This document shows, piece after piece, positions 11,001-59,447 of a stretch of DNA of 64,000 nucleotides. A model generated the notes under the pieces. That model was not told where the DNA came from, did not search any database, and saw nothing but the letters and a program-made list of their open reading frames with translations. Position numbers and translations under genes: made by a program. Where the stretch lies: NCBI GenBank assembly GCA_030390025.1, contig CM059432.1:32366001-32430000 (forward strand), in the 5' to 3' direction. Every line of letters begins with the position of its first letter. Within the stretch, counting starts at the first letter, position 1. The DNA is from Squalus acanthias (Eukaryota).

Positions 11001-11933
11001 ATGAGTTTGGATCACACATTAAAGTGCAATTTCCACCTCTACAACACACTGCTACAAAAACACAAATTGTAACAGCCGTTTGTAGTTAGTAGTTTAAATC
11101 CTCGCACACTTCAAAAATTAGAGTTTAAATTCCAATTTTTAGTCCAGATATTCCAAATCTTTATAATCCATATCGCCATGTCCGCTGCATTGTGGCCATT
11201 GAGTTGTCAACATTCTTCAATGATTAAGTCTCTCTTTTTTCTCAACCAATAAGTTGATTTTTACTAACTTTCTTTATTGACACATCACATCACACACACA
11301 ATCTTTCTTCCCAATTTCAATTTTCTCCTTATTCACATTCCAGTAAAACCCTTGGGATACAGCCACTACGATAGTTCCTCACTTATAACAGAGAGACAGA
11401 AACAGAAGGGAAGGAGGAAGCTCGGAGAGACTTTTTTCTTTCAGATAGAGCTAGGGAGAGTGCAAGTGGTTGAGAGAATTTTTTGATATAACTTTTTTTT
11501 GAGACAAGTCCTGAGAATTACTGAGATGACCAATCAGGGCCCCAATAGGTGTGTGCAGAACAATCCATCTCCAATAAAAGAACTCTGGACTTTACATTGG
11601 CGGCGAATGGGAAGGGCGAGCTCTGCCTCCAAAGGGCACCCGTGAAAACTAATTCAGTGTCTTCACTGAAGAACTGGGGAAATGAGAGAGGAACAAAACC
11701 TAGTTCTACGTAATTAGAGTATGGTAGTAATAGACTTTGGTGATTTAGGCTAGACAATGCTATAAAAGGATATGGAGCCAAGGCAGATCAATGGAGTTAA
11801 GATACAAATTAGCCATGATTTCATTGAATGGGTGGAAAAAGCTCAAGGAGCTGAATGACCTACTCCTGTTCCTATGTTCCTATGTCGATAGATGTTCCTA
11901 AGTGCTTACACTGTGCACTTTTGTATTGTACAG

Positions 11934-12965
11934 ATGGATCGCATGTCTTTTCCCTGTGGATGTACAAAGGACGGCTGTGGTAACACAATGGGCAGGATAG
12001 AGTTCAACTCTGCCAGAGTACAGACACACTTCATCCACACCATCATGAAGCTGGACTTGGAGAAACGGCAACCGAACGGTGAAAATAAGAATGGAGAGTC
12101 AGACACGGCGCACTTGGAAAATTCCCAGCACTATGGCTACTCGGCAGACAAATCTGCATTCCAGGACAGAAGTGCCTCCTTAACGCCAGCCTTTCACTTC
12201 AGCGAGGAGTCCGATGACACCGAGGACAACAGCTGTAGCAGTGACATGACCGACTCCAGTTCGTCGAATTACAGCGAGGAGGTGGACGAGGGAGTTGATG
12301 ACCGTTTCTTGGATAACGCACCGCAGTCTCGTCAAACTGCGGACATTGACGATGATGGACTGGCCCGGATACTCCATTTTAACGATTCTGACAATGAGTG
12401 CGGTAACGATGCAGAGAACCAGGACGGCTTCCCTTACTTTAACCCTTCCGATTTTTTCTGTGAGACTGGTGACCAGCACTGTGGCACAGAAAGCTTCAAG
12501 TTCAACACTGAGTACTACACTAATCACTTGCCCAGCTTGGACGAGAATGCCAATCAGGAGGGGAGTTTCCCCCTGGGCGATGTAGCTCCAACGCAGGGCA
12601 GCAGCCATGTCTATCCCCCATCTCACTGCCCAGAGCAGTCCACGAAAAGCTACACTGACCTCAGCCTGTCGACTGACTCCTTCGAATTTTTCCAGTCGTT
12701 CTCCGAGTTCAACTACGGCTCGTTTCACAACCCGCAGAAGGACTACGAAAGCATGGACAATTGTCCGACGCTCCAGTTTCAGTTCCCTGGGTTTCCCACC
12801 TTCACCCAGGCTGCCGATCCAGGCAGCTGTTTCCTGGAGTCTCTGATTGGTCTGGCTGAGCCAATCACAGCAGACTCCTTCCCAGAGCCCCCTACACCTT
12901 TCCCAGACAGTCAGCACCTTGAAGAAGCCATCAAAACATCCATCATGGAAACTGTGAAGGTTTGA
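11934..12965 (+). CDS. CSRNP1: CSRNP1 last coding exon ([17 protein letters not shown]...SIMETVKV*)
   Basis: Acceptor tacag| at 11933; conserved FPCGC-x3-GC and [10 protein letters not shown] motifs; C-terminus resembles CSRNP1 more than CSRNP2/3 (from recall); spliced CDS 1812 nt = 603 aa + stop. Confidence 0.93.
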
Positions 12966-17802: not shown

Positions 17803-20392
17803 AAAAATTATATATGCAAGAAAAGCAAGTGTTTGTGATTCTTCCCTCCAGTTTTCTTCGCTGTCTTTTCTGAAAGTGCTGGCGTATGCCAGAGTACATT
17901 TCAACGCACACCAGCCGCACAATGGTACCTCACCCGAGTGGGTGATTTAGAATTGGGGTTGGTCCTCGTGTGAATCTTGATGGGGAATTTCAGTGGCCTA
18001 CTGGACTGTGGGAAGAGGGGAGAGTTGCAGCCTAATCCGATCCCAGCATTGCCAGGTCTCCACTTGCACCAGTGTGCACTCTCGCTTTCCAGCAGAAGTT
18101 ACTAGGTAGCGATTAGCAGTAGGAAGCATGGCTGCTTTTCTTTTTACCCTTGCTCGGCCAGCATTGGCCAGAACACCAGGAGCACTCCGTACTCTTATTC
18201 AAACAGCGCCTTACGATCTTTATGACCATCTGAGGTGGGGGGGGGGGGGAATGAGCCTATGGCTTAATGCTAGCATTCCTGCCTCAGAGTCAGAAGGTGC
18301 AGGGTTCAAACCCTGTTGCAAACAGTCCTGGCGATTGGAGTTTGGCACTTTGGCTTTGAATTCTGGGTTAACATCCAGCGGGATGTTCGCATCCGGTGGG
18401 TGAGAGTGCCCCACCCTCTTCCCCCCCCCCCCCCCCCCCCATTGTATCGGTTGCGCGAGCCCATAAAACCCTCCTGTTTTTGGACTGATATAAGGATGGT
18501 TACGGCCATGGTAGGAGGGTTCATAATCGCAAACTGTTACAGCCTGCGAATCCTTCAGTGGAAGACTGAAGATATGAAAACAACTTGAAGGCAGATGGCG
18601 ATACACAAAGAGAAACAAGAAGAAAAACAAACTTGAAAGGTTGTAGGGGGAAAGGTGAGTGGGCTCACTGGGGGTGGTGGGGGGGAACATGACTGCAGCA
18701 GTAGAAGGCAAACTAAGAAATTCTTCCATTATTGTAGTATCTTTGACAATCTCGGGACATCCCAAAGCGCTTTACAGCCAATTAAGTATTTTTGAAGTGT
18801 AGTCATTGTTGTAATGTAGGGAAATGCAGCAGCCAATTTACGTATGGCAAGGTCCCACAAACAGCAATGTGTTAATGAACAAATACCACTGTTTTGATTG
18901 AGGGATAAATATTGGCCAGGAAAACTCCCCAGCTCTTCTTTGAAATAGTGCCATGGGATCTTTTGCATTCAAATGAGCAGGCAGATGGGGCCTCGGTTTA
19001 ACGTCTCATCCAAAAGACGGCACCTCCAATTGTCCAGCACTCCCTCTGCTTTTTAAAAAAAAGTCTTCACTGGAGAAGCACTAGTTATGTCACCAATCGT
19101 GGGAGGTTCAGTTGATATCCTGAAGATGCTGTATGAACTGACAACCATTAAATCTTCAGAGGCCAGGGATCATGAAGTTGATGAATACAGTGCATGTCCC
19201 GTTGCATTGGGTAACAAAGTACACATTTTCAAGAAAGGTGGTTAAAACTCTGGTAACTTAACTGGCAAATGATGGAATTGATTTTTTGGGGAACAAATTG
19301 AGGATTACTACATGAAAATAAACTAAGCAGCAATAAAATTTAAGAAGGCGGATTTTGCGTGAATAACTGGATACAGGCTAGTGGTTGTGGTACTGGACTG
19401 CCACCTGATTTGCTAATGTCCTTCAGGAACGGGAACCTGTCACCTCTACCTGATCTGGTCTACACGTAACTCCAATCCCACAATATGTGGTTGTCCCTTA
19501 ATGGCCTCTGATGTGGTCTAGCAAGCCACCCAGTTATAAATCCTAAGAGAGGCATCAAATGGGCCTATCAGCAACAACCGATGTATTGGATCAGGGCAAG
19601 ACTTGAGTAATCCCAACATCAACCCTGCAAAGTTGTCCTCGCTACCATCTGGGGACTGGTGCCCAAGTTGGGTGAGATCAGTTGGAGCTTCTCATTTGGA
19701 TTCTGTTAATCCCCTCTCTGATTTTTGCTGTTAAATCCATTTTCTAGCCCAGCAGTAGACTCTTTGACCCAGCTTTAACTTTGTTAAATCCATTTCAATA
19801 GGCTGGCAATGTAAAGGGCAAGAGCTTGGAATCCACATACATATGTGTATGTGACTTCAATCCCACACCGATATGGTTGGCTCTTAACAACCCTCTGAAG
19901 TGGCCTAGCAAGCCACTCAATTGAATCAAAAAATTCAGGGTTTGAAAAGGCCCACCACCACCTTCATTGGGCAACTAGGGATGGGTAATAAATTCTGGCT
20001 TTGCCAGTGATGCTTCTATCCTGAGAATAAATTTTTTTAAACTGAGGTAGGGGTACTAACACTGGGCTGACTTACTATAAGGTCAGTGAAGTGAAATACA
20101 TGATTTTTTAAGGGAATCAATGGTCCTTAGAAATTTTAATACTTTAAGTGGGTAAAAGTAGGACAATTTGCACCAGGAGCTGGTATGAAAACATCCAGAA
20201 AGGGTTCTGTATGTCATACATATTGAAAATGTTGCTTTGGGAATGTTGTGGGATGGTTACATCCTGTCCAGCTCGTATGTAGCAACATGCCTTTTCTTTG
20301 TTTTTGGGATGTGGGCAGCAATGGCAAAGGAGTATCTATTGCTCATCTCTAGTTGCCCTGAGGGTAAGGGCAACTACGTAATGTGGGAGTAT

Positions 20393-29165: not shown

Positions 29166-32100
29166 TAGATACTCACATGCATACACACACAGAGAATTAG
29201 TTGAGATAGAAACTGTCGATATTCAATATTAGATTAGATAGGTGGATGAAGATGAAAGGGTTGAAGGGATATGGCAGCAGATTGGGTAAAGGGAGGGTAA
29301 ATGCCAACGTGGACTGGTTGGGCCACATGGCTTCTTTCCGTTGTAACTGCTTTGTATTTCTATGTAATTAGTTTTCACCATTAGCAAAGCCAAAATCTAA
29401 ACAATTTCACCACTGCCCAATCGCTATCCTACATCCTTACAAATGAAAGTCCTAGGGACCTAACCAAATGGGTTAATCAGATTGTCTATATAACAACAGT
29501 CGCTGCATTTCAAAGTAATTCATTGTATTGTCAGGGTAGATGCTAAGAGGTTGTTTCCCCTGGCTGGAGAGTCTAGAACTAGGGGGCATAGTCTCAGGAT
29601 AAGGGGTCGGCCATTTAAGACTGAGATGAGGAGGAATTTCTTTACTCAGAGGGTTGTGAATCTTTGGAATTCTCTGCCCCAAAGGGCTGTGGATGCTGAG
29701 TCGTTGAGTATATTCAAGGCTGAGGTAGATAGATTTTTGGACTTGAGGGGAATCAAGGGATATGGGGATCGGTCGGGAAAGTGGAGTTGAGGTCGAAGAT
29801 CTTATTAAATGGCGGTGCAGACTCGAAGGGCTGTGTGGCCTACTCCTGCTCCTAATTCTTACGTTCTTATGTAAGCAAAGCACTTTGGGATGTTTTCAAC
29901 GGACGTGATGAAACCATAAGAAATTTCAAGTCTTTCTTTTTTGACGTCTGAGAGGAGTAAATACAAAATTAGGGCAGCAAAGTATCTTTTTTACTTTTTC
30001 TGTTCCAATATTCTGTCCTTCAGACACTAACCCTTGCTAGAGTAAGTTTTCCTCTGTTCTCTTAGGTGTTAGTAACATCATAGAATCTTACAGCACAAAA
30101 GGAGTCCATTCAGCTCATCGTGCCTGTGCCGGCTTTTTGAAAGAGATATCCAATTAGTCCCACTCCGCTGCTCTTTCCCCATAGCCCTGAAGCCTGTCTG
30201 TGTGTATATATCTGTGCTTGTATGTAACTGTGTGTTGTTGTGTACATATTTATGTGTTTGAGACTGTGCGCACGTCTGTGTTTACGTCTGCGTGTATGTG
30301 TACCTGTGAACATCTGTGAATGTGTGTACAGCTGTGTATGCCTGTATCTGTGCACAAAATCTAGGCTGACACTCCAAAACAGTACTGAGGGAGTGCTGCA
30401 CTGTCGGAGGTGCCGTCTTTCGATGAGACAGTAAACCGAGGCTCCGTCTGCTGGAAGTAAACGATTCCATGGCACTATTGGAAGAAGAGCAGTGGAGTTC
30501 TCCCCAGTGTTCTGGCCAATATTTATCCCTTAACCAACATCACAAAGACAGATTACCATTATTTCATTCCTGTTTTTGGGAGCTTGCTGTGCACAAATTG
30601 GCCGTCGCGTTTTCTACATTACAACATTACTGCACTTCAAAAGTACTTCATTGGCTTTGGGGCATCCTGAGGTCATGAAAGACGCTATATAAATGCAACT
30701 TTTTGTTCTTTTTAAATATGTCTTGTTCGGATGGATTACTATGTGTTAAAGAGGATACAAGGCTTTATATCTGTGCTCTGAGCGTCCCCAGGTGGACAAA
30801 CTTTAATTGACATGCAAGTCTAGTGCAATCGAGTAAATTCTATTTGCGGTTTTATTCCCATATGTCTTGAAGGCAATAAATTAATGGAGTGAATGGTTCT
30901 GTCAGCACCGGCTGATGTCCTCCATTATGTCACCTCATAGTAGAGAAAAAGGCAATGAATAGCACTACCCAAATGTACACGTGTAAGAAAGAACTTGCAT
31001 GTATATAGCGCCTTTCATGATCTCAGGACGTCCCAAAGCACTTGACAGCCCATGAAGTACTTTCAACATAGGGAAATGCGGCAGCCAATTTGCACACAGC
31101 AAGGTCCCACCAACAGCAAAGAAATAATAATTCTATAATATGTTCTAGTGAAGTTGGTTGAGGGATAAATATTGGCAAGTACATTGGGCGAACTCCTCTG
31201 CTCTTCTTAAAATAGTAACATCGGATCTTTTATGTCTACCTGAGAGGGCAGACAGGGTCTCAGTTTAACGTCTCATCAGAAAGATGGCACTTCCCACTGG
31301 AGTGCCAGCCTTGGTTACATGCTCACGTCTGTGGAGTGAGGCTTGAACCCACATCCTTCTGACTCAGAAGCGAAAGTGCAACCACTCAGCTAATGCTAAA
31401 ATCCTCACTATATGCATCATGATTACAACACGATTGAGTTCCCGACTGATGCCCCCCCAAAAAAAACCCGATTACCTAAAATGGTAACACCATGGTAGGA
31501 GCACCATTAGTACAAGGACTACAGTGGTTCAAGGAAAAGGCCCATCGCCATCTACTCAGGGCAACTAGGGATGAGCAACAAATGCAGCCTTGCCAGAGAA
31601 CAACAAAAAGGTAAGGAAGTGGAGGCAAAAGCCCCAGAGCCATTTAAGAGGTAGGGGGACACTCTGTTGGAGATGATCGTAAGTTTGAATATACTTGGGA
31701 ATGGGGCAGATAGATTGCAGATGAAATTAAATGTAGAGAAATGTAAAGTGTTACACATGGGGACAAAAAAAAATCCATGAAGGGACTATTACTTAAATGG
31801 AAACAAACTAATGTGCATGGAAAATGAAACTGTGGAAACATTATTTCAGTGAACAAGTGGTAAACCTATGGGCGAAGCTTTCTAGGGAGATGGTGGAAGC
31901 AGTTAGTATTGATTCATGCAAATGTAAATTAGATAGATTTAGTTCAGAATATAACATTTTGCGATACAGTGCATGAGTAATTTGAGACATGACATGTGGA
32001 AAGTGTAGCATACTTAGAAAGAACAGGTGACTTTGGACCTATGATTCCCAAAGCTCTCCACCACTAGGGTTTACCTCTTATATCTGGGTCTGCTGTAGAC

Positions 32101-32404
32101 TAATTGATAGAGGTTAATTGCTATGATTAGTCAACAACTTCATTATCATTGTATCATGTGACTGTCAGGATGGTAGCAAGCGAACTAGATAGACCTTGGA
32201 AATAACAACAGAAAACGCTGGAAAAACTCAGCAGGCCAGGCAGCATCCGTGGAGTAGAGGTAGAGGGAATTTAAAAGGTAGGTTCGATTTTATATTTTGT
32301 TTTCAGGGACTTAACTCCTGGACCTAAGTTAAATAAGTTTAAATTTTAGTAATAAAGTAACATAAGGGTTAAGTCTCGGACCCGTTTCATGCTCCTCCTG
32401 TGCC

Positions 32405-33307
32405 ATGTGGGAAACCAGGGACACTTGCAGTGTCCCTGACAACTACGTGTGCGGGAAGTGTGTCCAGCTGCAGCTCCTGACAGCCCGCATGGCGGTGCTG
32501 GAGCTGCGGGTGGACTCACTCTGGAGCATGCACGATGCCGAGAACTCGGTGAATCGCTCATTTAGTGAGTTGTCCACACCGCAGGTAAAGGCTAGGACAG
32601 ACAGTGAATGGGTGACCAAGAAGCAGGGCAATATCAGGAAGGTAGTGCAGGAGTCCCCTGTGGTCATCTCCCTCCAAAACAGGTATGCCGCTTTGGATAC
32701 TGTTGGGGGAGATGGCCTACCAGGGGAAGGCACTAGCAGCCAGGTTCATGGCACCATGGCTGGCTCTGCTGCACAGCAGGGCGGGAAAAAGAGTGGTAGG
32801 GCTATAGTGATAGGGGACTCAATTGTAAGGGGAATAGACAGGAGTTTCTGTGGCCGCAACCGAGATTCCAGGATGGTATGTTGCCTCCCTGGTGCAAGGG
32901 TCAAGGATGTCTCGGAGCGGCTGCAGAACATTCTGAAGAGGGAGGGTGAACAGCCAGCTGTCGTGGTGCATGTAGGTACCAACGATATAGGTAAAAAGCG
33001 GGAAGAGGTCCTACAAGCAGAATTTAGGGAGCTAGGAGCTAAATTAAAAAGTAGGACCTCTAAGGTAGTAATCTCTGGATTGCTACCAGGGCCACGTGCT
33101 AATCAGAATAGAGAGAACAGGATAGTGAGATTGAATACATGGCTTGAGCAGTGGTGCAGGAGGGAGGGATTCAAATTCCTGAGGCATTGGAACCAGTTCT
33201 GGGGGAAGTGGGACCTGTACAAAAGGGACGGTCTGCACTTGGGCAGGACTGGAACCGATGTCCTCGGGGTAATATTTGCTAAAGCAGTTCGGGAGGATTT
33301 AAACTAA
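32405..33307 (+). CDS. CR1 ORF1p: Cys-rich zinc-finger/coiled region plus SGNH/GDSL esterase domain
   Basis: VIGDSIVR, VHVGTND and DGLHL esterase blocks; CxxC motifs. Confidence 0.9.
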   Translation: MWETRDTCSVPDNYVCGKCVQLQLLTARMAVLELRVDSLWSMHDAENSVNRSFSELSTPQVKARTDSEWVTKKQGNIRKVVQESPVVISLQNRYAALDTVGGDGLPGEGTSSQVHGTMAGSAAQQGGKKSGRAIVIGDSIVRGIDRSFCGRNRDSRMVCCLPGARVKDVSERLQNILKREGEQPAVVVHVGTNDIGKKREEVLQAEFRELGAKLKSRTSKVVISGLLPGPRANQNRENRIVRLNTWLEQWCRREGFKFLRHWNQFWGKWDLYKRDGLHLGRTGTDVLGVIFAKAVREDLN

Positions 33308-33354
33308 TATGGCAGGGGAATGGGAACCTATGTAGCGAAACAGGGGGAAGTAAT

Positions 33355-36288
33355 ATGCAGTCAGAAACAAATGTTAGGGTGAGAAACAATAAGGGAAATC
33401 CGAGTAAACAAAGGCAAGAAACACAAAGGGCCATACTAAATCATAAGTCTAAAAGGACAAAGGATGTTAATGAAACAAGCCTAAAGGCTCTGTCTCTTAA
33501 TGCAAGGAGTATCCGTAATAAGGTGGATGAATTGACTGTGCAAATAGATGTTAACGGATACGATGTGATTAGGATTACAGAGACGTGGCTCCAGAACAAT
33601 CAAGGCTGGGAACTGAACATCCAGGGGTATTCAACATTCAGAAAGGATAGAATAAAAGGAAAAGGGGGTGGGGTAGCATTGCTGGTTAAAGAGGAGATTA
33701 ATGCAATAGCTAGGAAGGACATCAGCTTGGAGGATGTGGAATCAATATGGGTTGAGCTGCAGAACACCAAAGGGCAGAAAACGTTAGTGGGAGTTGTGTA
33801 CAGACCTCCAAACAGCAGTAGTGAGGTGGGGGAGGGTATGAAACAGGAAATCAGAGGTGCGTGCAAAAAAGGCACGGCAGTTATCATGGGTGACTTTAAT
33901 ATGCATATAGATTGGGCTACTCAAACTGGAAGCAATACGGTGGAGGAGGATTTCCTGGAGTGTTTAAGGGATGGTTTCCTAAACCAATATGTTGAGGAAC
34001 CAACTCGAGGGGAGGCCATCCTGGACTGGGTGTTGTGTAATGAGGAGGGACTAATCAGCAATCTTGTGGTACGAGGCCCCCTGGGGAAGAGTGACCATAG
34101 TATGGTGGAGTTCTACATTAGGATGGAGAAGGAAACAGTTAAGTCAGAGACCATGGTCCAGAACTTAAATAAGGGCAACTTTGAGGGTATGAGGCGTGAA
34201 TTGGCGAGGTTAAATTGGCAAGCGATATTTAAGGGGCTATCAGTGGAAGGGCAATGGCAGACATTTAGAGATCGCATGGATGAACTACAACAATTGTACA
34301 TCCCGGTCTGGCGTAAAAATAAAAAAGGGAAGGTGGCTCAACCATGGCTAACAAGGGAAATCAGGGATAATATTAAAACCAAGGAAGTTGCATACAAATT
34401 GGCCAGAAGTAGCAGCAAACCCGGGGACTGGGAGAACTTCAAAACTCAGCAGAGGAGGACGAAGGGTTTGATTAGGGCAGGGAAAATAAAATATGAAAGG
34501 AAGCTTGCAGAGAACATTAAAATGGACTGCAAAAGCTTCTATAAATATGTAAAAAGAAAGAGGTTAGTAAAAACAAACGTAGGTCCCCTGCAGTCGGAAA
34601 CAGGGGAAGTCGTAATGGGGAACAAGGAAATGGCAGATCAATTGAACAAGTACTTTGGTTCGGTGTTTACTGTGGAGGACACACACAACCTGCCGGAAAT
34701 AAAAGGGGTCAGAGGATCTGGTAAGAGGGAGGAGCTGAGGGAAATCCTTATTAGTCGGGAAAAGGTATTGGGGAAATTGATGGGACTGAAGGCTGAAAAA
34801 TCCCCGGGGCCTGATGGTCTGCATCCCAGAGTACTTAAGGAGGTGGCCTTGGAAATAGTGGATGCATTGACGATCATTTTCCAACATTCCTTAGACTCTG
34901 GATCAGTTCCGATGGAGTGGAGGGTGGCCAATGTAACCCCTCTTTTTAAAAAAGGAGGGAGGGAGAAAGCAGGGAATTATAGACCGGTCAGCCTGACATC
35001 GGTCGTGGGTAAAATGATGGAAGCAATTATTAAAGATGTCATAACAGACCATTTGGAAAGTGGCGACATGATAGGTCCAAGTCAGCATGGATTTGTGAAA
35101 GGGAAATCATGCTTGACAAATCTTCTGGAATTTTTTGAGGATGTTTCCAATAGGGTGGACAGGGGGGAACCAGTAGATGTGGTGTATTTGGACTTTCAGA
35201 AGGCCTTCAACAAGGTCCCACACAAGAGATTGGTGAGCAAAGTTAAAGCACATGGGATTGGGGGTAATGTGTTGACGTGGATTGAGAACTGGTTGGCACA
35301 CAGGAAACAAAGAGTAGGAGTAAATGGGTACTTTTCAGAATGGCAGGCAGTGACCAGCGGGGTACCGCAGGGTTCGGTGCTGGGACCCCAGCTGTTTACA
35401 TTATATATTAATGATTTGGACGAAGGGATTAAATGTAATATCTCCAAATTTGCGGATGACACTAAATTGGGAGGCAGTGTGAACAATGAGGAGGATGCTA
35501 GGAGGCTACAGAGTGACTTGGACAGGTTGGGTGAATGGGCAAATGTATGGCAGATGAAGTACAATGTGGATAAATGTGAGGTTATCCACTTTGGTGGTAA
35601 AAATAGAGAGGCGGACTATTACCTGAATGGTGGCAGATTAGGGAAAGGGGACGTGCAACGAGACCTGGGCGTCATGGTACATCAGTCACTGAAGGTGGGA
35701 ATGCAAGTGCAGCAGGCAGTCAAGAAAGCAAATGGAATGATGGCCTTCATAGCAAGGGGATTTGAGTACAGGAGTAGGGAGGTGATGCTACAGTTGTACA
35801 GGGCCTTGGTGAGGCCACACCTGGAGTATTGTGCGCAGTTTTGGTCTCCTAACTTAAGGAAGGACATTCTTGCTATTGAGGGAGTGCAGCGAAGGTTCAC
35901 TAGATTGATTCCTGGGATGGCCGGACTGACATATCAAGAAAGATTGGGTCAACTGAACTTGTATCCTCTGGAGTTCAGAAGAATGAGGGGGGATCTTATA
36001 GAGACATTTAAAATCCTGACTGGTTTAGACAAATTAGATGCGGGCAGAATGTTCCCAATGTTAGGGAAAACTAGAACCAGGGGTCACAGTCTAAGGATTA
36101 AGGGGAAGCCATTTAGGACTGAGCTGAGGAGGAACTTCTTCACCCAGAGAGTGGTGAATCTATGGAATTCTCTTCCACAGAAGGTTGTTGAGGCCAGTTC
36201 GCTAAATATATTCAAAAGGGAGTTAGATATAACACTCACAACTAAGGGGATCAAGGGGTATGGCGAGAAAGCAGGAATGGGGTACTGA
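33355..36288 (+). CDS. CR1 ORF2p: APE endonuclease + reverse transcriptase (977 aa)
   Basis: NARSI, ITETW, GDFN, SDH endonuclease motifs; YRPVSL, GVPQGSVLGP, KFADDTK RT motifs; uninterrupted ORF. Confidence 0.96.
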   Translation: MQSETNVRVRNNKGNPSKQRQETQRAILNHKSKRTKDVNETSLKALSLNARSIRNKVDELTVQIDVNGYDVIRITETWLQNNQGWELNIQGYSTFRKDRIKGKGGGVALLVKEEINAIARKDISLEDVESIWVELQNTKGQKTLVGVVYRPPNSSSEVGEGMKQEIRGACKKGTAVIMGDFNMHIDWATQTGSNTVEEDFLECLRDGFLNQYVEEPTRGEAILDWVLCNEEGLISNLVVRGPLGKSDHSMVEFYIRMEKETVKSETMVQNLNKGNFEGMRRELARLNWQAIFKGLSVEGQWQTFRDRMDELQQLYIPVWRKNKKGKVAQPWLTREIRDNIKTKEVAYKLARSSSKPGDWENFKTQQRRTKGLIRAGKIKYERKLAENIKMDCKSFYKYVKRKRLVKTNVGPLQSETGEVVMGNKEMADQLNKYFGSVFTVEDTHNLPEIKGVRGSGKREELREILISREKVLGKLMGLKAEKSPGPDGLHPRVLKEVALEIVDALTIIFQHSLDSGSVPMEWRVANVTPLFKKGGREKAGNYRPVSLTSVVGKMMEAIIKDVITDHLESGDMIGPSQHGFVKGKSCLTNLLEFFEDVSNRVDRGEPVDVVYLDFQKAFNKVPHKRLVSKVKAHGIGGNVLTWIENWLAHRKQRVGVNGYFSEWQAVTSGVPQGSVLGPQLFTLYINDLDEGIKCNISKFADDTKLGGSVNNEEDARRLQSDLDRLGEWANVWQMKYNVDKCEVIHFGGKNREADYYLNGGRLGKGDVQRDLGVMVHQSLKVGMQVQQAVKKANGMMAFIARGFEYRSREVMLQLYRALVRPHLEYCAQFWSPNLRKDILAIEGVQRRFTRLIPGMAGLTYQERLGQLNLYPLEFRRMRGDLIETFKILTGLDKLDAGRMFPMLGKTRTRGHSLRIKGKPFRTELRRNFFTQRVVNLWNSLPQKVVEASSLNIFKRELDITLTTKGIKGYGEKAGMGY

Positions 36289-36401
36289 GGTAGCATGTTC
36301 AGCCATGAACGCATTGAATGGCGGTGCAGGCTCGAAGGACCGAATGGTCTACTCCTGTACCTATTTTCTATGTTTCTATGTTTTCTATGAGAGAGAAACA
36401 G

Positions 36402-36438
36402 AGTTAACGTTTCAGGTCAAAGACCTTTCGTCAGAACT
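36402..36438 (-). ncRNA. Minimal type I hammerhead-ribozyme-like motif in Penelope terminal repeat
   Basis: Minus strand reads AGTT-CTGACGA-A-AGGTC ttt GACCT-GAAA-CGT-T-AACT: stem I AGTT/AACT, CUGANGA core, stem II, GAAA, palindromic ACGT stem III. Confidence 0.7.
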
Positions 36439-37034
36439 GGAAAAAAGCAGGAAATGAAATAGATTTTAAAGCAAGTACAGTATAATGCTGGGAAAAGGGG
36501 GAGGGGATGAAAGAACAAAAGGGAAGGTCAGTGGTAGGATAGAAAGCAGGAGAGATTAAGAGACATTGAGAGACATTAAGAGATATTCAAGGCAAGAGGA
36601 GGTGGTAATGTGACAGGTTGAGGAACAAAGGATGGCTCTAGATGAAGTGTGAAATGCGCTGGCAGAATGAAGGACAGCTGCCAGCTACATAGAGTTCAAC
36701 AATTTCAGATCATAACCCCAGCCCCCATCACATATATACCTATTTTTTTTTATCCACCCTTTTGTTTGGCGCTTTTTTTTTCTTCCCTCCCAGAAGCTGG
36801 CAGCTGTCCTTCATTCTGCCAGTGCATTTCACACTTCATCTAGAGCCATCCTTTGTTCCTCAACCTGTCACATTACCACCTCCTCTTGCCTTGAATATCT
36901 CTTAATGTCTCAATGTCTCTAATCTCTCCTGCTTTCTATCCTATCACTGACCTTCCCTTTTGTTCTTTCATCCCCTCCCCCTTTTCCCAGCATTATACTT
37001 GCTTTAAAATCTATTTAATTTCCTGCTTTTTTCC

Positions 37035-37071
37035 AGTTCTGACGAAAGGTCTTCGACCTGAAACGATAACT
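37035..37071 (+). ncRNA. Hammerhead-like motif (variant, GAAACGAT)
   Basis: AGTT CTGACGA A AGGTC ttc GACCT GAAA CGAT AACT. Confidence 0.55.
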
Positions 37072-37429
37072 CTGTTTCTCTCTCCACGGATGCTGCCTGG
37101 CCTGCTGAGTTTTTCCAGCGTTTTCTGTTGTTATTTCGGATTTCCAGCATCCGCAGTATTTTGCTATCGTAGATAGACCTTGGTCTTTTTTTGTCTAGTA
37201 ATTCCTATGTTCCTAGGAAGAATGAGGTAGTTGGGCCAAATGTCTCTTATCTGAGTTTTCATTCTGTGCATATGATGTAGTCATTATATTACTGTGACCC
37301 AAGAAAGCAGATACACTCTACACAATTCAAAAATTTTTTGAAACAAGTGGACGCTTCAAGTCTAGTAGCGCCATCAGCTGGTACAGAGTAACACTGCAAC
37401 TGTTTTCCATTCATCCAATTTTATCAGAT

Positions 37430-37535
37430 CATCTTCCTGTTCTGATGAAAGGTCATCGACCTGAAGCATTAACTATGTTTCTCTTTCCACAGATGCTGCC
37501 TGACCTGCTGACTGTTTCCAGCATTTACTGTTTTT
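37430..37535 (+). mobile_element. Short Penelope terminal fragment with degenerate hammerhead core (GAAG instead of GAAA)
   Basis: CTGATGAAAGGTCATCGACCTGAAG...GATGCTGCCTGACCTGCTGA, same as other Penelope tails here. Confidence 0.7.
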
Positions 37536-38097: not shown

Positions 38098-39268
38098 ATG
38101 GGGGCTGTACTGGCAGTCGACCTCACCGTCCAGGATCTACGGCAGAGGGAGCGGAGGCAGCGAGAAAGACTGGAATATGTGGCCATCAGGGCTCTCAACA
38201 GGAGGCCTTACCCTCCGAGGGTATTCCAAGAGCACTTCTCCTACCTCCAATTAAGCGAGGAGCAGTCCATTAGAAGGCTCCGCTTCACCAAGGAGGTGGT
38301 CACAGAACTCTGCCACCTCCTGCAACCAGACCTCCAGCCTCAGATAAGGGCGAGCACGGCTCTCCCAGTGGCAGTCAAAGTCACCGTCGCCCTCAATTTC
38401 TTCACCAGCGGATCCTTCCAGTCTGCAACAGGAGACATAGCTAACATCTTGCAGTTCGCCGTCCATCGCTGCACCCGGGAGGTCACAGAGGCTCTCTAGA
38501 GTAGGAGAAGGGACTACATTTCCTTCCCCATCACCAGAGAGAAGCAGGACAAGCGTGCATGTGGCTTTGCTAGGATAGCGGGATTCCCCATGGTGCAGGG
38601 CACCATTGATTGCCCGCACGTGGCCTTGCAGGCACCACATAACAATCCTGAGATCTTCCATAACCACAAAGGCTACCACTCACTTAATGTGCAGTTGGTG
38701 TGTGACCACAGACAGCTAATCCACAATGTCAATGCCCGCTATCCTGGTAGCAGGCACGATGCCTTCATCCTGTGCCAAACCGGTGTGCCAGCACTATTCC
38801 AGCCACCATGTCAAGCTCGCGCCTGGCTGGTCAGAGACGAGGGCTATCCGCTCTCCACCTGGCTCATGATTCCCCTCCGCAACCCCAACGCTCCTGCCCA
38901 GCAGTCATATAATGAGAGCCATGCCGCCACCAGGGATCATCATCAAGGAGACCATTGGCCTGCTGAAACAACGGTTCCACTGCCTTGACCGCTCGGGAGG
39001 AACCCTCCAGTACTCGGCTGAGCGGGTGTCCCATTTCGTGGTGGTCTGCTGCATGCTCCACAACTTGGCCATCATGAGGGCCCAGCCCTTGCCACCAGGG
39101 ATTGCGGGACCACCTCAGGAGGAGGAAGAGGGAGAGGAAAAGCAGGAGGAGGAGGAAGAGGAAGATGAAGAGGAGGAGGAGGAACAGGAGCGAGGGCGGA
39201 GGCAGCCACTCAATCAGCCTTCCGGAAGGGTGGTCCATGACCGCCTCATCAGACTGCGGTTCGAATGA
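38098..39268 (+). pseudogene. Harbinger (HARBI1-like) DDE transposase, disrupted
   Basis: LRFTKE, ALNFFTSGSFQ, GTIDCPHV, KGYHSLNVQLVCD, PGSRHDAFIL, LKQRFHCLD, CCMLHNLA motifs; stop at 38497-38499 and frameshift near 38940. Confidence 0.9.
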
Positions 39269-39449
39269 ATTAAACCTCAGATCCCCATTGCTCACCACAT
39301 CCCCATCATTCCATTCCTGTCGCAGGCCATATCACAGCACAAAGCTGAAATGAGAGACACCACAAAAGAATCCAAACTGAATTTATAAATTTATCAATAA
39401 TCAGTGAACACATATTTACAACAAAATATTAACTATTCATCTTGTGCAA

Positions 39450-42400
39450 TTACTTAGTGCCTCTCGTTACTGTGCCTTTGCCTACTCTAGTGCTCCTACG
39501 AAGTGTTGGCCCAGTGGCTGCAGCATGGCTGGTGGAAGGCTGCTGAGTGTCCGTGTAGGGAGACTTCAGATGGCCATGCAGGATGCCCTCGACCAGCTCT
39601 GGGCCTGGAAGGCCCGGCTGTAGACTGCACCAGCTCAGCATGGGCAGCAGCAGTCTGGGCTGGCTGGATGACAGGGAGTGACAAGGGCAATGGCGGAGTG
39701 GCAGTGGTGAGAGCAGGAATGCTGTCATCATGAGAGAGGCCAGCAAGTTCCTGCTCCACTGACCCACTGCTACTCCCTTGGGGCAGCACCTCAGCATCCC
39801 TAGCAATCTGTTGGAGCAGATTGCTGGCCTGCTGCGACACCGTGAAAGCCCCAATCGACAGTGGTATACCCAGCCACGATAGTAACAGTCAGAGCTTGCA
39901 TTGCATCAAGTTGAGACTGCATGAGAGCAGTCTGAGATTGGATGCCACCAAGCATGGACTGCATTACAGCACTAAGACGTTGTGTCGCTTCCGCCTGTGC
40001 TGCAATGGAAGCTGCCAGATCGCCCATCACACGCGGCATCAAGTCTGGGTCGCCACGGTCTCTCTGGGAGTCTACCATCCTTTGCAGACTGGAAATGATG
40101 GGCTCCATGGTGTGCGCAGAGCCTTGTGCAATGTTGGAGGCACACTCCTCCATGCTCCTTATCATTGTCGAGAGGCTCTCGGGCACCCTTGCCATTGCAC
40201 CTATCATCTCTGTGTGCATGCCCATCACCCTTCTTCTAAATGCCTCTCCATCAAGGTTCTCATCTGAGTCCCGTGCAGCAGAACTCACGCGTGAACTCGC
40301 CCTCCGGTGAGCTGGCCCCCGAGCTACCTTTTCCCCCTGGCCTTGCTGCAGCCCACTCGCAAGCTGGCGGAAAATATAAAAACTAACTCCAAAAGCTTTT
40401 ATAAGTATATCAAGAGGAAAAGACTGGTGAAAACCAAAGTTGGCCCATTGCAGTCAGATAAGGGGAATATATAACGGGAAATAAGGAAATGGCAGACCAA
40501 CTAAATGCATACTTTGGGTCAGTCTTTACGAAGGAAGACACAAAAAACCTCCCTGGGATATCGGGAAAAATAGGGACATTGGCAAAGGAGGAACTGACGC
40601 AAATCAATATCTCTAAGGATATGGTGTTAAGGAAGCTAAAGGGATTGAAGGCGGACAAATCCCCAGGGCCTGATAACATGCATCCTAGGGTGCTGAAGGA
40701 GGTGGCCCTAGAGATAGCGGATGCACTAAGTATGATTTTTCAGAATTCATTAGACTCGGGAACAGTGCCCATGGATTGGAGGGTAGCTAACGTTACCCCA
40801 CTATTCAAAAAGGGGGGTAGGGAAAAAGCAGGTAATTACAGACCTGTAAGCCTTACATCAGTTGTGGGCAAAATGCTGGAGTCCATCATTAAGGATGAAA
40901 TAGCGGAGCACTTAGCAAATGGGGACAGGATAGGACAGAGTCAACATGGATTTACAAAGGGTAAATCGTGCTTGACTAATCTATTGGAATTTTTTGAGGG
41001 AGTAACTGGTAAAATAGATGGGGGAGAGCCAGTAGATGTGGTGTACCTGGACTTCCAAAAGGCCTTCGATAAGGTCCCACATAAAAGATTAGCAGGGAAA
41101 ATTGAAGCTCATGGGATAAAGGGGAAAGTATTGACGTGGATAGAGAACTGGCTGTCAGATAGAAAACAGAGAGTTGGAATAAACGGCTCATTTTCTGAAT
41201 GGCAGGCAGTAACAAGTGGGGTACCGCAGGGATCTGTCCTGGGTCCCCAGCTGTTCACAATTTACATTAATGACCTGGATCAGGGAGTCGGATGCAGCAT
41301 TTCCAAATTTGCAGACGACACTAAACTAGGAGGGGGGGTGGGCTCAGAGGAGGAGACCAGGAAGCTCCAGAGCGATTTGGACAGACTGGGTGATTGGGCG
41401 GATAAATGGCAGATGCACTATAATGTGGACAAGTGCGAAGTTATCCACCTTGGGTGCAGGAACGGGAGGGCAAATTATTATTTAAATGGCAATAAATTGG
41501 GAGAGGGGGAAGTACAGAGAGACCTGGGTGTTCTTGTACACCAGTCACTGAAGGCGAGCATGCAGGTGCAACAGGCGGTCAAGAAGGCAAACGGTATGCT
41601 GGCCTTCATAGCAAAAGGGTTGGAATACAGGAACAGGGATACCTTGCTGCAGCTGTACAGGGCACTGGTGAGACCACACCTCGAGTACTGTGTACAGTTT
41701 TGGTCGCCTCATCTGAGGAAAGATGTTCTTGCCATGGAGGGGGTGCAGCGGCGATTCACCAGGCTGATACCAGGAATGGCGGGATTGACCTATGAGGAGA
41801 GACTATGTAGTTTAGGGATGTACACACTGGAGTTTAGAAGATTGAGAGGGGACCTCATAGAAGTGTATAAAATTCTGACAGGTCTAGACAGACTAGATGC
41901 AGAAGGAATGTTTCCCTTGGCGGGTGAGAACAGAACTAGAGGACATAATTTAAGGATAAGGGCTAAACCATTTAGGACAGAAATGAGGGGGAATTTCTTC
42001 ACTCAGAGGGTGGTGAACCTGTGGAACTCATTGCCACAGAGGGCAGTGTACGCCAGCTCATTAAATATATTTAAGAGGGAATTAGATATATTTCTACAGG
42101 CAAAAGGGGTTAAGGGTTACGGAGAGAAGGCGGGGACGGGATACTGAATTGGAGGATCAGCCATGATCTCATTAAATGGCGGAGCAGGCTCGAAGGGCCG
42201 GATGGCCTACTCCTGCTCCTATCTTCTATGTATCTATGTATCTATGTATCTATGTCCCCGGTGCCTCACCCTGTGCAGATCCCACTACTATAGAAGCTTC
42301 TAAAGAATACATAGTGCCAGTGTCTGAGCTGGTGCCTGCGGGTGAGAGATGCAGTGACGCAGTGTTATTCCTCCTCCTCTTCTCCGGCTTCGCTCTCTAC

Positions 42401-43209
42401 GGTGCCCTCAGGGACAGGCTGCTCAGATGCTTGCTCATTATCTGAAAGCATAAAGGCACAAGAGTCGGGTAAAGGTGAGGGGAGGAGGGCAGGAAGGGAG
42501 AAATGCATGCATACAGTGCGAAACACTTGTGGGGTGAGGGGGAAGTGGGATGTGAGAAGGAGGGGTAGGGATGAGAATACCATTATTGTCCTCAAGGGGG
42601 TCAATGTCGCCGGTGGCCACAGCGCCCACCACCTGGCGCCCAATGATTCGCAGCACTCTTTCCTCCAGCTCAGAAAGTGTTTGGGTGTCAGGTTGTTCCC
42701 CGCCTGTGCGCTCCTGCTCCCTCATGCTGTGAGCCACCTTAGCCTGCAAGAGAAAGGAAAGTGTGTGAGTGAGTGTGGAGCAATGTGTTTGGGGGATGTC
42801 CCTGCCATTGTTGAATAGCTCTCATTGTGTGCAAGGTGTGAGATGTGGGTGTGAGTGTTGGTAGGTGGAGATTGTTGGTGGGTGAGTGCTGGGGATGTGG
42901 TGTTTTGGGTAGTCTGTGAAGACTGTGGTTCAGATGTATGTAGCATTTGTTGAAGCATTCACTCACCCTGACCACTCGAGTGAGGTCGTTAAATTTCTTC
43001 CTGCACTGTGTGTGGGTTCTGGGGACCACAGTGCTGCCCAAGACGTGCAGCACTACCTCCCTCCACATGGTGCGGAACACTTGCGGTGAGGGCCTCCTGC
43101 CACTTGCCGGGTAGAGCACCGCCCTCAGTCTCTCCACAGCGAACACCAACGCCTCCAATGCTTGATTGCAGAATCTGCGGGCTCTCTCCCTGGGGCATGG
43201 ATCTGCCAT
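39450..43209 (-). pseudogene. Harbinger Myb/SANT-like (trihelix) accessory gene, 3 exons, disrupted
   Basis: Exon 1 43209-42967 (RF..ALEALV..WREV..RTHTQCRKKFNDL), exon 2 42743-42581, exon 3 from 42441 with GT-AG junctions in phase; stop at 42365 and CR1 insertion in exon 3. Confidence 0.82.
40359..42254 (+). mobile_element. 5'-truncated young CR1 (RT ORF 40489-42147) inserted in the Harbinger Myb-like gene
   Basis: 552-aa open RT ORF, (TATCTATG)n tail; Harbinger sequence resumes on both sides. Confidence 0.93.
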
Positions 43210-44324
43210 GAGTACAGCTGCTTCAGTCCTCCGGCTCCTTCTCCTTGACCTGCTGCTGCTTGCTGAGGCAGCTGCACAGCCAGCAATGCTAAGAACGAGG
43301 TTCTGCAGCATCAATGAAGCTCCCCTCTAAGAACTGGAAAAAGCCTGTGGCAATCATGACTTGTGATTGGACTGCACCTGATATTGGTCCACCCTTTGAG
43401 TGTAATGCCAATGGGCTTGAGCTTCAAGGCTTGAATTAGGACTCCAATAATTTTTTGAGCCGTGAGCATGAATTTTGCGTGCAGTCTAAAGCATTAGTGC
43501 CTGGCGCTAATTCTCCAACTTTTCTAATTATACCACCCATTCCTGGGCTGTAATGAATTTCTAGCCCTGGGTATCTGTTAGCCCAAAAATGACCATTGGA
43601 CAACTACCGAACTTTCATGCATGGTAAACACAATACACGGCCATGCACAGGCCACAGGCACCTATCCATCTCCACTAGGGGCAGACTGGCCATACGGGGA
43701 ATTGGGAGATTTCCCGAGTGCCCACGAATGGTTCCTTAGCCCACCCTTTTTTCTATGAGAATCCTAATGGGCGCGGGATTCTCATAGAAAAAGGATCAGA
43801 CTCTTTGCTCCTGTGGTTCATAACATGACCCTAATCACTACAAGTGTGTTACAACCTTGTAACTAATTCTCAAGCCTCTGATATTCTCTATGTAGTAAAC
43901 TTTAAATGCCTTTTAATGGCAAGTCCCAATAATTCTTAATCTAGTCCATTTACATTTGTTTATCAGTGTCACGCTCACAATATCTCCCTCTCCTTGTGTA
44001 ATGGGAAAAGTTGCGCCTGTGTATAATTGAAAGTTGCTCAAAGTTTCACATTTTAAAGCCAGACAGACCCAGAAATGTCTGTAACCGAGGTCAAACAACA
44101 GTTCTTTTTTCTCCTTTACACTTTTCTTGCCTCCTGTTCTGAAGTAATTTACCTCAAAAAACGTTGGAATAAAAATGGGAGGAAGTTATGCTTCAGTTGC
44201 ATAGATCTTTGGTTAGACCACATCTGGGCATTGCGTTCAGTTTTGTGCATGATGGATATAAAAATTCCAGTCACTTTTTTCCTCTTTTACTTTTCTGGGC
44301 CACGTCCCATTCAACCTCATCATT

Positions 44325-50648: not shown

Positions 50649-50761
50649 CTCTGCTATAATCTCTGCTTCAGCCCAGAAATTTACATTGCTACAGTGAGGA
50701 AAAAATTATTAATGAGGTTCCTTTAAACCAATGAAGTGTTGAATTTTACAAAAAATGTGTC

Positions 50762-51510
50762 CAGGGCCCCAAACACCCCTTCCAGGTGAAACAGCGATTT
50801 ACTTGTACTTCTTGCAATTTAGTAAACTGTATTCGCTGCTCACGATACGGTCTCCTCTACATTGGGGAGACCAAACGCAGATTGGGTGACCGCTTTGCGG
50901 AACACCTCCGTTCAGTCCGTAAGGGGGACCCCGAGCTTCCGGTCGCCTGTCACTTTAATTCTCCGCTCCACTCCCACTCGGACCTCACTGTCCTCGGTCT
51001 CTTGCATTGTTCCACTGAAGCTCAGTGTAAGCTCGAGGAACAGCACCTCATCTTTCGATTAGGCACTTTACAGCCTTCTGGACTCAACATAGAGTTCAAC
51101 AATTTCAGATCATAACCTCAGCCCCTATCATATATATATTTTTTATCCACACTTTTTGTCTGTCTTTTTTTCTTCTCTCCCACATGGCAGCTGTCTTTCA
51201 TTCTGCCAGCGCAATTTACACTTCATCTAGAGCCATCCTTTGTTTCTTAACCTGTCCCATTACCATCTCCTTTTGCCTTGCTTATCTCTAAATGTCTCTT
51301 AACCTCTCCTGCCTTCTATCCTCACAGACCTTCCCTTTTGTTCTTTCATCCCCTCCCCCCTTTCCCAACCCCTACGCTTGCTTAAAAATCTGTTCCATTT
51401 CCTGCTTTTTTCCAGTTCTGACGAAAGGTCATCGACCTGAAACGCTAACTCTGTTTCTCTCTTCACAGATGCTGCCTGACTTGCTGAGTATCTTCAGCAT
51501 TTTCTGTTTT
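50762..51510 (+). mobile_element. Penelope-like element 3' fragment (GIY-YIG endonuclease + terminal repeat with hammerhead-like motif 51414-51450)
   Basis: ORF 50786-51115: NLVNCIRCSR.GLLYIGETKRRLGDRFAEH...GLN; tail matches the other Penelope copies. Confidence 0.9.
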
Positions 51511-51624
51511 TAACCCAACCAACTAGTTTAGGTAAGAACAAAAGAATTTTGAGGAAAAGGCCCATTTGTTCCCCTGAAATGAAGTCACGAGTTGATAAGG
51601 TAATTCAAGTAATTCAAGTGATTA

Positions 51625-55629: not shown

Positions 55630-58600
55630 CACAAAAGCAATGTACTGCAGATGCTGGAAATCTGAAATAAAAACAGAAAATGCTGGAGATACTCAGCAGG
55701 TCAGGCAGCATCTGTGGAGAGAGAAACAGAGTAACATTTCAGGTCGATGACCTTTCATCAGATCTGGAAATGTTAGAGATGTAACAGGTTTTAAGGAAGT
55801 AGAGACAGGGAAAGGGGGAATGGGAGGAAAGAACAAAAGGGAAGGCCTGTGATAGGGTGGAAGGCAGGAGAGATTAAATGACAAAAGGGATGATGGTGCA
55901 AGACAAAAGGAGATGGTAATGGGACAAGTAAAGAAACAAAAGATGGGTCTAGACGAGGTGTAAATGGGAATGGCAGAATCAGCACCTGCTGTCCGAAAAA
56001 ATGGGAGCAGTGTTTATGAGCTGAAATTGTTGAACTCAATGTTGAGCCCGGAATGCTGTAAAGTGCCTAATCGAAAGATGAGGTGCTGTTCCTCGAGCTT
56101 ACGTTGAGCTTCATTGGAACAGTGAAGGTGACCGAGGACAGAGAGGTCAGAGTGGGAGTGGAGCAGAGAATTAAAATGACACGTGACCAGAAGCTCGGGG
56201 TCACGCTTGTGGACTGAACGGATGTGTTCCGCAAAGCGGTCACCCAATCTGCATTTGGTCTCCCCAGTGTAGAGGAGACCGCATCGTGAGCAGCGAATAC
56301 AGTATACTAAGTTAAAAGAAGTACAAGTAAATCGCTGTTTCACCTGGAATGAATGTTTGGGGCCCTGGACGGTACTAAGGGAGGAGGTAAAAGGGCAGGT
56401 GTTGCATGGGAAGGTGCTGTGGGAAGGGGAGGGGGTGTTGGGGGTGATTGACGCATGGACCAGGGTGTCGCAGAGGGAACAGTCCCTTCAGAATGCTGAA
56501 AGGGAAAGGGAAGGTCTGTTTGGTAGTGGGATCACGCTGGAGGTGGTGGAAATGGCGGAGGATGATCCGTTGAATTGGAGGCTGGTGGGGTGGAAGGTGA
56601 GGACCAGGGGAATCCTATCGTGGTTCCGGGAGGGAGGGGAAGGGGTGAAAGCATAAGTGCGGGAAATGGAACAGACACGGTCGAGGGCCCTGTCATCCAC
56701 GGTGGAGGGGAATCCTCGGTTGAGGTGTAGAATTCGCAATATATCGCGATTTTATTAATAAGGAGAAAAACACATAGTTTCGTTCAAACAGCTTTTATTT
56801 CAGCAGAATGCTGTCAGGTTTCAAAGTGGACACAAGCAGCTTGTAAAATGGCCGCCGCACCTCGTGGCGGAACATTCTAGACTTTTCAACAGGCAGACAA
56901 GATGGCGTTCCAATAAACATTTGTGCAAGATCGATTAAGATTCAGCACATTGAAGATAATACACGAGACATCATGGGTTTACAGTATACACATAAATACT
57001 GAAATCGGTCTCCCAGGTACGAATAAAAACTATTGTACCAAGTAATCAAGAACCCATCCAAAGACATTAATATGTAAAATCCCAACGACTCTACGATGAG
57101 AGAGCCGTTAGCGGGTAGTTACAGAAAACACTTGGAAGCCCCAAAACCCCTCCAGGGAGAACACCGACCGATTAAACAATGGGAGAAATATTAACAGGTA
57201 CTCAGACATTTACGAGTAGCCCCGAAACCCATTAAAAACGGAGATCACCCTATACAAGACATTTGAGCGCCAAACCCTAACAAAAGAAAAGACATTAAGG
57301 TTGGGCAGGAAACGGAAGATTTTGTACTATAATTACAAGCTCCAAACCGTCCATCTCTCTCTTATCCTCTTATCTTGCTGGTGTTCATCCTCGTGGCTGC
57401 TCCTGTGTTCTTGACTCGCCGTCTTGTTCCTGCTTGCCTCGTGTCTCTTTTAAAAAGACTGTTGAATTTTGTGATCCGCTCGGATCTACCTCGTGTCGTG
57501 TCGCGAAGACCTGTGTAGAACTGGGCTCTGAAGCCTTGAAGCGGGCGCACCATTCCGATAAGTCGGTAAACGGTGTCGGAACCAAAGGCCCGAGATGAGA
57601 TGAGATGAGATGAGATGAGAAGAGAAGAAGACCATACTTATCGCCACGGTCAGTAAGCCCCGACCGCGCCTGTAGGTCGAATAGACATTTTCCTTGCCAG
57701 GAAGACTTCTTTGAGTTCTACAGAACTGACACAGGAAGACTCTTCTTTGAATTTTATCGCACCCGTGCGAGGGCACAGGAAGACTCTTTTTTGAGTAGAG
57801 TCGGAACTCCGAGGACAACACAGATCTTCATGACAGCAGACGTTCCAGCTTGCTAGCCGGAGCAGAACGAGTAAACAAGTGGGGCCAGGAGACCCCCTGA
57901 TCGACACGTGGGCGCTGCGGTGAAAAACATCCGATCAGAGGTTTCGGAATTCTCCGAGTTATCACGAGTGGTGAGCATGAGTCTCGAATCCTACGAATCT
58001 AGTTTAGAATAGGTATTGATAGGGGAGGGTTTAAGTTTTAAGGATAACTGTAATGTGTGCCCCCATTTATGATGTGTCGTTCGTTCCTCGTTTCCCTGAA
58101 ATTAGTTACATAACTGCGTGTAAGATTGTACTGTCATGAATCTGTGCTTATGACATGTATTTCGAAATCTTAAATATTATGCAATAAAGATTTTCCATTT
58201 CGTACCATTCAACCGAGTCTACCTGAGTTTCATCTCCATTACTGCTCTCGCATCTAAGTCCAGTGTCTAGAACCGTAAGGGCGAGTGGATCGAACCACTC
58301 ACAGGTGTGTCTAGTGCTCCCAGACTGGCTGGAGACCAGAACAGGCAATAAGGCCTAAACCCGCACTAGCATCCAGGCTGCACAGAGCCACACGAATCTC
58401 ACAGGCTGAGAGACGGTCAGAAACCCTTACAGAGGAAAAAGGAAGACATATCGGAAGCACTGGTATGGAAGGTGGTATCGTCAGAACAGATGCGACGGAA
58501 ACGGAGAAACTGGAAGAATGGAATAGAGTCCTTACAGGAAGGTGGGAGAAAGTGTAGTCAAGGTAGCTGTGTGAGTCAGTGGGCTTATAGTGGATGTTTG

Positions 58601-59150: not shown

Positions 59151-59310
59151 TCAGATTTATCCATTGCACTTCCCTGATGCCTCTTTAAGGCATTTTGTAT
59201 TGCTATTGGTTTGTACCAGAACTGAGTGAAAATTGTGCTTTTGCCTGGTTACACTGAGGGGCAGGTCAGGCCCATGGATCATGTCATGTGCAAAGATTTG
59301 TTATACTTAC

Positions 59311-59447
59311 ATTCAGTCAGTCCCCATCCAGTGATATAACAGGGAAAATTATCAGGAAGGATTCGACCAGGTGATGGAAGATTAGCAATCTGCACATATT
59401 GGTTAATAATAACTGGCTCTAGCAGATAAAGCAAAGCGATATCATTC
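59311..59447 (-). CDS. Chymotrypsin-like elastase-family serine protease, exon with catalytic Asp (NDIALL...[10 protein letters not shown])
   Basis: 137-nt exon, ttgcag| acceptor, |GTAAGT donor; DIALL and CYITGWG motifs; size and phase match the CELA/CTRC gene structure. Confidence 0.9.

Follow-up and report, generated by a model that had tools for sequence, protein, structure and literature searches.

The 64-kb stretch of DNA analysed here (the window) contains, at positions 32186-37183, two inverted copies of the 3' end of a Penelope-like element (PLE), each with a hammerhead-like motif. This raises the question of whether the locus is a single truncated and inverted insertion or a member of a non-autonomous, ribozyme-bearing family, the two options that the original prediction had set side by side. 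The locus is an ordinary PLE leftover, whose inverted copy, tail, target site duplication (TSD) and opposite-strand hammerheads are features already published for such elements. Very probably, it goes back to one dead-on-arrival insertion of an EN+ PLE, with priming at two nicks, early stops and end-joining, to which a CR1 element was later added.

Anatomy of the insertion and order of its layers

The element is framed, as predicted, by an exact 14-bp TSD, with the left copy at 32186-32199 (+) and the right copy at 37170-37183 (+). The 14-mer, TAGATAGACCTTGG, occurs exactly twice in the 64-kb window and the match extends no further, while none of 200,000 random position pairs shared a 14-mer in register. 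The right arm (36687-37169, +) is a 5'-truncated PLE comprising the last eight ORF codons, the 3' UTR/pLTR and the tail, and it opens with IEFNNFRS* (36689-36715), the end of the GIY-YIG ORF. The left arm is inverted and lies in two pieces: an outer piece (32199-32254, -), which is the PLE 3' end without the tail and complementary to 37082-37137 at 56 of 56 positions, and an inner piece (36389-36686, -), a 5'-truncated PLE 3' region that mirrors 36795-37084 with 285 matches in 298 alignment columns, five substitutions and three gaps. The arms stand head to head with their 3' ends outward, the pair measuring about 0.83 kb without the CR1, and the inversion junction, 36686|36687, is blunt; next to it, the left arm ends in an 11-nt micro-hairpin (36676-36686, +; AGCT, 3 nt, AGCT). 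The arms are unequal because a 108-nt inner extra (36687-36794) and the 32-nt tail (37138-37169, +) sit on the right arm only, and the outer end of the left arm stops 32 nt short of that of the right arm. The tail is also present in another PLE copy, at 55630-59152. The element had been described as consisting only of two inverted copies, which holds for the inverted arms but not for the word 'only', given the two single-occurrence segments and the included ORF end. Nor is the unit non-coding as claimed, since the right arm starts with the last eight codons of the GIY-YIG ORF; a purely non-coding separate unit is ruled out by longer copies, in which the sequence continues into GIY-YIG coding sequence.

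When the five arm-to-arm substitutions are compared with other window copies, two fall on the left arm and three on the right, two of them being CpG transitions, and this spread over both arms would, as expected, fit decay from identical copies. At aligned bases, the two arms agree to about 98.6%, compared with 79-85% for the other window copies. An origin by two independent head-to-head insertions that met by chance, or by an assembly fold-back artefact, is scarcely credible. In its favour, the family is very abundant, the contig depth of the arms exceeding that of the flank by a factor of tens of thousands; however, one exact TSD surrounds both arms, and this, together with the arm identity, contradicts two chance insertions. 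The arms also differ by substitutions and indels and only one of them holds a CR1, which no artefact would give, and an assembly error is rejected.

The CR1 LINE within the left arm (32255-36389, +) is about 4.1 kb long, shows a 2-3-nt overlap (AG/GAG) at its site and ends in a (TTCTATG)-like tail. Its ORF1 (32366-33307, +; 313 aa stop to stop) encodes a GDSL esterase domain (PF13472, E 3e-13), and its ORF2 (33283-36288, +; 1001 aa stop to stop, no stops) an APE endonuclease and an RT (PF03372, E 8e-13; PF00078, E 8e-34). The esterase ORF1, the APE-RT ORF2, the 3' stem-loop and the microsatellite tail are shared with the CR1/L3 LINEs of cartilaginous fishes, and this comparison yielded no differences. 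The CR1 inserted second, because contigs of all three contig runs carry the arm without it (joint 32251>36393); the uninterrupted arm was found in none of the reads of a raw-read run, a thin set of 150 aligned reads from a distant organism (organism I). These four runs were aligned out of 21 available. With both ORFs open and the CR1-free arm seen in contigs, the predicted later split by a full-length CR1 is supported.

The oldest layer is a CR1/L3-type LINE remnant whose left part (31685-32185, +) was detected by tblastn with the CR1 ORF2, with matches at 31685-31810 (E 1.4e-6) and 31815-31934 (E 1e-4); its extent to 32185 is presumed. To the right of the second TSD copy, a T run, a stem partner and a TTCCTATG-like tail (37184-37215, +) continue what we take, by its likeness, to be the 3' end of the same host LINE. 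Degraded CR1-type RT sequence on the left and a LINE-like tail on the right agree with the predicted older LINE-like host, and the three-layer nest is confirmed in its order: old CR1-type LINE, then the PLE pair, then the CR1 in the left arm. This anatomy, the TSD and the nesting order are direct observations. For the state before insertion, contig joints were ranked by depth and the best 15 of 1159 were taken in; no empty site was seen among these 15, and the flank contigs were ambiguous. The right flank is single-copy in all three contig runs, and the contig of run X9 extends 7 nt into the tail before 24 unaligned letters follow, a pattern that neither the filled nor the empty state fits cleanly. 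Within the window, the inferred empty-site sequence had no match spanning the joint.

The PLE family and its other copies

The right arm is 84% identical to 51087-51512 and 79% identical to 55636-55979, both of which run upstream into GIY-YIG coding sequence. The right arm is a 5'-truncated PLE, because the related copies continue into GIY-YIG sequence and IEFNNFRS* is in frame, and the claimed Penelope origin of the arms is borne out by their match to copies with RT and GIY-YIG coding sequence. For instance, the copy at 55630-59152 (-), a degraded member of the same family that is 5'-truncated in the RT, has the full tail and an 11-bp TSD (TGGATAAATCT) without an inverted arm; it contains RT pieces followed by VYCIRCSRCGLLYTGET..H..H and a GIY-YIG domain with CCHH, as in EN+ PLEs, and the GIY-YIG profile PF01541 matches it with E 9e-4, which is below the curated cut-off. 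This copy is interrupted by a 1.7-kb insert (56726-58431, -) whose ends are TG...CA and which comes with a duplication of 4 bp, CCTC; the insert looks like a solo LTR. Further copies are tail-less stumps with hammerhead motifs of the GCU and GAAG variants (50759-51512 and 37434-37535, both +). The window copies have four start points, namely 59152 (in the RT), about 50759 (in the GIY-YIG), 36687 (in the last codons) and about 37434 (just before the hammerhead).

A search for homologues of the PLE endonuclease gave nine matches, four of them named, from two rays and a shark, and five with eukprot ids only. On the named matches, the host of this vertebrate DNA is taken to be a cartilaginous fish. 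Among five of the nine, a CX4CxxC linker is complete in P0001 and P0002 (CKRNKCYTC), degenerate in P0003 and P0004 and absent from the chimeric P0005; in the window copy, only PCNTC is visible of the linker. A CX2-5CxxC linker marks Neptune and Nematis and not Penelope or Poseidon, according to PMC8557442. Judged by the linker of its relatives, the element would be Neptune-type, a feature that Nematis shares. The literature on Neptune and other PLEs in cartilaginous fishes that was searched, outside subscription journals and Repbase/Dfam, contained no paper naming the PLE family of the window.

Within the 3' region, an ATG at 37090 (+), preceded by a pyrimidine tract and C(A/G)G, opens 27 codons without a stop up to the end of the tail, and the frame at 37090-37170 may mark where the ORF begins, within the pLTR and downstream of a splice acceptor. 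The five of nine homologues that were fetched begin within the RT or are chimeric and give no view of the ORF start. In the same region, 37088-37096 can pair with 37146-37154 in the tail (CGGAUGCUG/CAGCAUCCG); the copy at 55630-55720 (-) has A-U where the right arm has G-C, a single compensatory change in two sequences. Isolated folds of the 3' region were not more stable than those of shuffled sequences in four of four cases (z -0.6 to -1.6).

Two hammerhead motifs on opposite strands

Both arms read AGTT-CTGACGA-A-AGGTC-loop-GACCT-GAAAC-NNT-AACT, so that the predicted CUGANGA-stem II-GAAA core and AGTT/AACT stem I are found in each. The left-arm motif (36402-36438, -) is a minimal type I hammerhead motif with an intact core and GUU, a palindromic ACGU at 15.1-16.1 and an A-U pair at 10.1-11.1. 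In the right-arm minimal motif (37035-37071, +), U16.1 is replaced by A, giving GAU, and this motif is predicted to be inactive; the claimed GUU cleavage site thus exists in the left arm only. The 10.1-11.1 pair is A-U instead of the usual G-C in all five window motifs folded.

A descriptor modelled on the minimal motif, and written after the motif was seen, gave three window matches in relaxed form (both arms and 51418), compared with a mean of 0.02 in 100 shuffles; in strict form, its sole window match was the left arm, with none in 100 shuffles, and a version requiring a UH site was passed by one of the two arms. The bare CTGANGA..GAAA pattern is weakly above chance (13 occurrences versus 7.3 expected; 1 of 100 shuffles reached 13). 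An Rfam search of the window returned no hammerheads among nine matches at E<=10, and its two best matches (mir-31, below the gathering score) correspond to the arm-to-arm hairpin. A scan with one hammerhead pattern found no occurrence in metagenome contigs or in viral contigs.

The motifs resemble the minimal type I hammerheads described in PMC4209133, with which they share CUGANGA, an extra nucleotide before stem II, a 4-bp stem I, a palindromic 15.2-16.2, no real helix III and an opposite-strand pair; they differ in the A-U in place of the highly conserved G-C at 10.1-11.1, in the 5-bp stem II and in the loss of U16.1 on the right. The same paper also describes paired minimal hammerheads on opposite strands, with 100-700 bp between them, and finds little cleavage even when they dimerise. 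The two arm motifs here lie 597 nt apart on opposite strands, and hence one transcript holds one sense motif and the antisense of the other. A cis dimer of the two hammerheads is ruled out, as opposite strands give no two sense motifs per RNA. When 36389-37169 is folded, the arms pair into one hairpin (-567 kcal/mol for the plus and -572 kcal/mol for the minus strand), in which stem II of either motif forms with a probability of about 1e-13 or less.

It is extremely improbable that the hammerheads work as a ribozyme pair here, as the original prediction implied. The left motif satisfies the minimal descriptor at every position and includes the palindromic ACGU that dimers require; however, the strands are opposite, the right motif lacks U16.1, the arm-to-arm pairing would sequester both motifs, and PMC4209133 reports poor cleavage by minimal PLE hammerheads, dimers included. 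Even in isolation, the left motif favours an inactive fold (-24.1 kcal/mol) over the active dimer (-9.7 kcal/mol) in a nearest-neighbour model that ignores tertiary terms. The two motifs almost certainly cannot cut RNA together at this locus. Most likely, the hammerheads are passengers of the pLTR, standard for the PLE family and idle as a pair here.

Routes to the inverted pair

An inverted 5'-truncated copy, a one-sided tail of 30-40 bp and a TSD are described as typical of PLE insertions in PMC8557442 and PMC3846280, and the locus, with its inverted 5'-truncated copy, 32-nt tail at one end and exact 14-bp TSD, has each of these EN+ PLE features. The option of a single truncated and inverted insertion is supported by the one TSD, the 5'-truncated arms and the varied starts. 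We propose that the GIY-YIG nuclease would have nicked the target strands at positions 14 bp apart, in the 3' end of an old LINE of CR1 type, and that both nicks would have primed reverse transcription of the element RNA, at start sites 32 nt apart. Two such start sites would leave the tail on one arm only. The two cDNAs would have ended prematurely, at about 343 and 483 nt, and would have been joined at their truncation points, presumably by end-joining, into a head-to-head inverted pair with the 3' ends outward. The young CR1 would have inserted into the left arm later.

Priming from both nicks is suggested by the in vitro behaviour of PAc, a Poseidon element of Anolis carolinensis, whose protein both cuts the two strands of the target and extends them (Frangieh et al. 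2024, PMC11167929). In that study, PAc starts at two adjacent RNA sites, the spacing of which equals the tail, and its insertion needs no hammerhead cleavage. The locus shares with PAc a hammerhead near the 3' end and a tail lying between two 3' end points, and PAc-like extension of both target strands would yield its geometry. The two-nick model is, however, borrowed from a Poseidon-clade element and not a Neptune-type one: relatives of the window PLE carry the CX4CxxC linker that is absent in Poseidon. A further point against two nicks is the 14-bp TSD, compared with 8-10 bp in rotifer PLEs in PMC3846280. There, Pen2a/Pen2 of Adineta vaga share with the locus the head-to-head arms, an inverted arm that is shorter at its inner end, a tail of 31-32 nt carried by one of the arms, a single TSD enclosing the unit and a short palindrome at the junction; in the window, in contrast, eight ORF codons are left, the TSD is 14 bp and not 8-10 bp, and a CR1 splits one arm. 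For these insertions, PMC3846280 instead proposes self-priming on an antisense template.

While we favour end-joining of two cDNAs, the inversion in the same insertion could have come from a single cDNA that folded back or switched template under the guidance of hairpins, in which case hairpins, including that of the hammerhead, would have set the breakpoints; this we consider possible but rather unlikely. The inner end of the left arm lies on the 11-nt hairpin, and a comparable hairpin begins at 6 of 469 right-arm positions (about 1%, a post hoc figure). Among the best 15 of 1159 contig joints, six are head-to-head (left-arm-to-right-arm) jumps at element positions 37037-37056, the hammerhead 5' edge and stem II, and these are the best-supported other joints; two further head-to-head joints lie at 36905 and 36888. 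Palindromes at inverted junctions are also reported, and read as self-priming, in PMC3846280. Fold-back would be expected to give a perfect palindrome, whereas here 108 nt of further-upstream sequence stand between the arms at a blunt joint; by itself, it gives no account of the one-sided tail, and the joint evidence covers the best 15 of 1159, ranked by depth. Two-nick priming and a hairpin-guided switch are not mutually exclusive.

The remaining question is whether the pair was copied as a unit. The junction 36686|36687 is present once in the window, and we infer it to be unique. Because the head-to-head joints in contigs of three runs lie at other positions, the head-to-head architecture is common in the family with other junctions; and because the window copies truncate elsewhere as well, this junction looks made at insertion and not inherited. 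Some of the other joints reach a summed contig depth of 128-505 in one run (X1), compared with about 9 on the single-copy flank, although depth is no copy number. The high-depth joints, 36417-36436 > 37036-37096 in the contigs from organisms A, B and C, fall at the hammerhead 5' edge and read as short palindromes, about 0.2 kb long and joining hammerhead to hammerhead, at other places in those genomes. Such short junctions may recur as hot spots or by amplification.

The depth of some of these short junctions would suit a non-autonomous palindromic family whose members the PLE machinery copies whole, together with the junction. Non-autonomous PLE derivatives do exist, as tandem retrozymes, in bioRxiv 10.64898/2026.07.22.740005, where non-LTR retrozymes are reported in the one chondrichthyan sampled; like the window unit, these are non-coding, pLTR-derived and equipped with a type I hammerhead. 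They are, in contrast, head-to-tail tandems with two sense hammerheads, whereas the window unit is head-to-head with one motif per strand, and membership of the retrozymes is rejected on the inverted arms. The window holds no second copy of the junction, the unit begins at an arbitrary point of the ORF, and its transcript would be a long double-stranded hairpin. The family option of the original prediction is also not supported in view of the continuation of longer copies into GIY-YIG coding sequence, the four start points and the location of the other contig joints elsewhere, and we regard such a family as very unlikely. It is an equally long shot that the 0.83-kb palindrome belongs to a family copied head-to-head and that RNA hairpins, the fold of the hammerhead among them, determine its breakpoints; if true, it would be the inverted counterpart of the tandem retrozymes.

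As a single dead-on-arrival insertion, the locus would be a clean record in the genome of how PLEs insert, by itself of little weight and no evidence of a working ribozyme pair. The two 3' end points lie on opposite strands of the target, separated by exactly one tail length, which fits the priming at two sites and on two strands that the anole element shows in vitro, and such stumps across shark genomes could test both the two-site priming model and hairpin-set inversion points.

Elsewhere, the window is rich in CR1 elements and includes the last exon of CSRNP at 11892-12965. A segment at 59290-59450 (-; NDIALL...CYITGWG) is presumably a trypsin/elastase-like serine protease exon, judged by its motif. 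Harbinger-like pieces lie at 38500-40453, 42739-43326 and 62986-63582, the last with a Myb/SANT domain, and a frame near 38500-38988 looks DDE-like. An abundant SINE-like repeat occurs in opposite orientations at 30350-30704 and 30989-31400, 73-86% alike and 284 nt apart; this is probably a chance pair, because other copies occur in the window (about 5067-5477 and 18741-19046).
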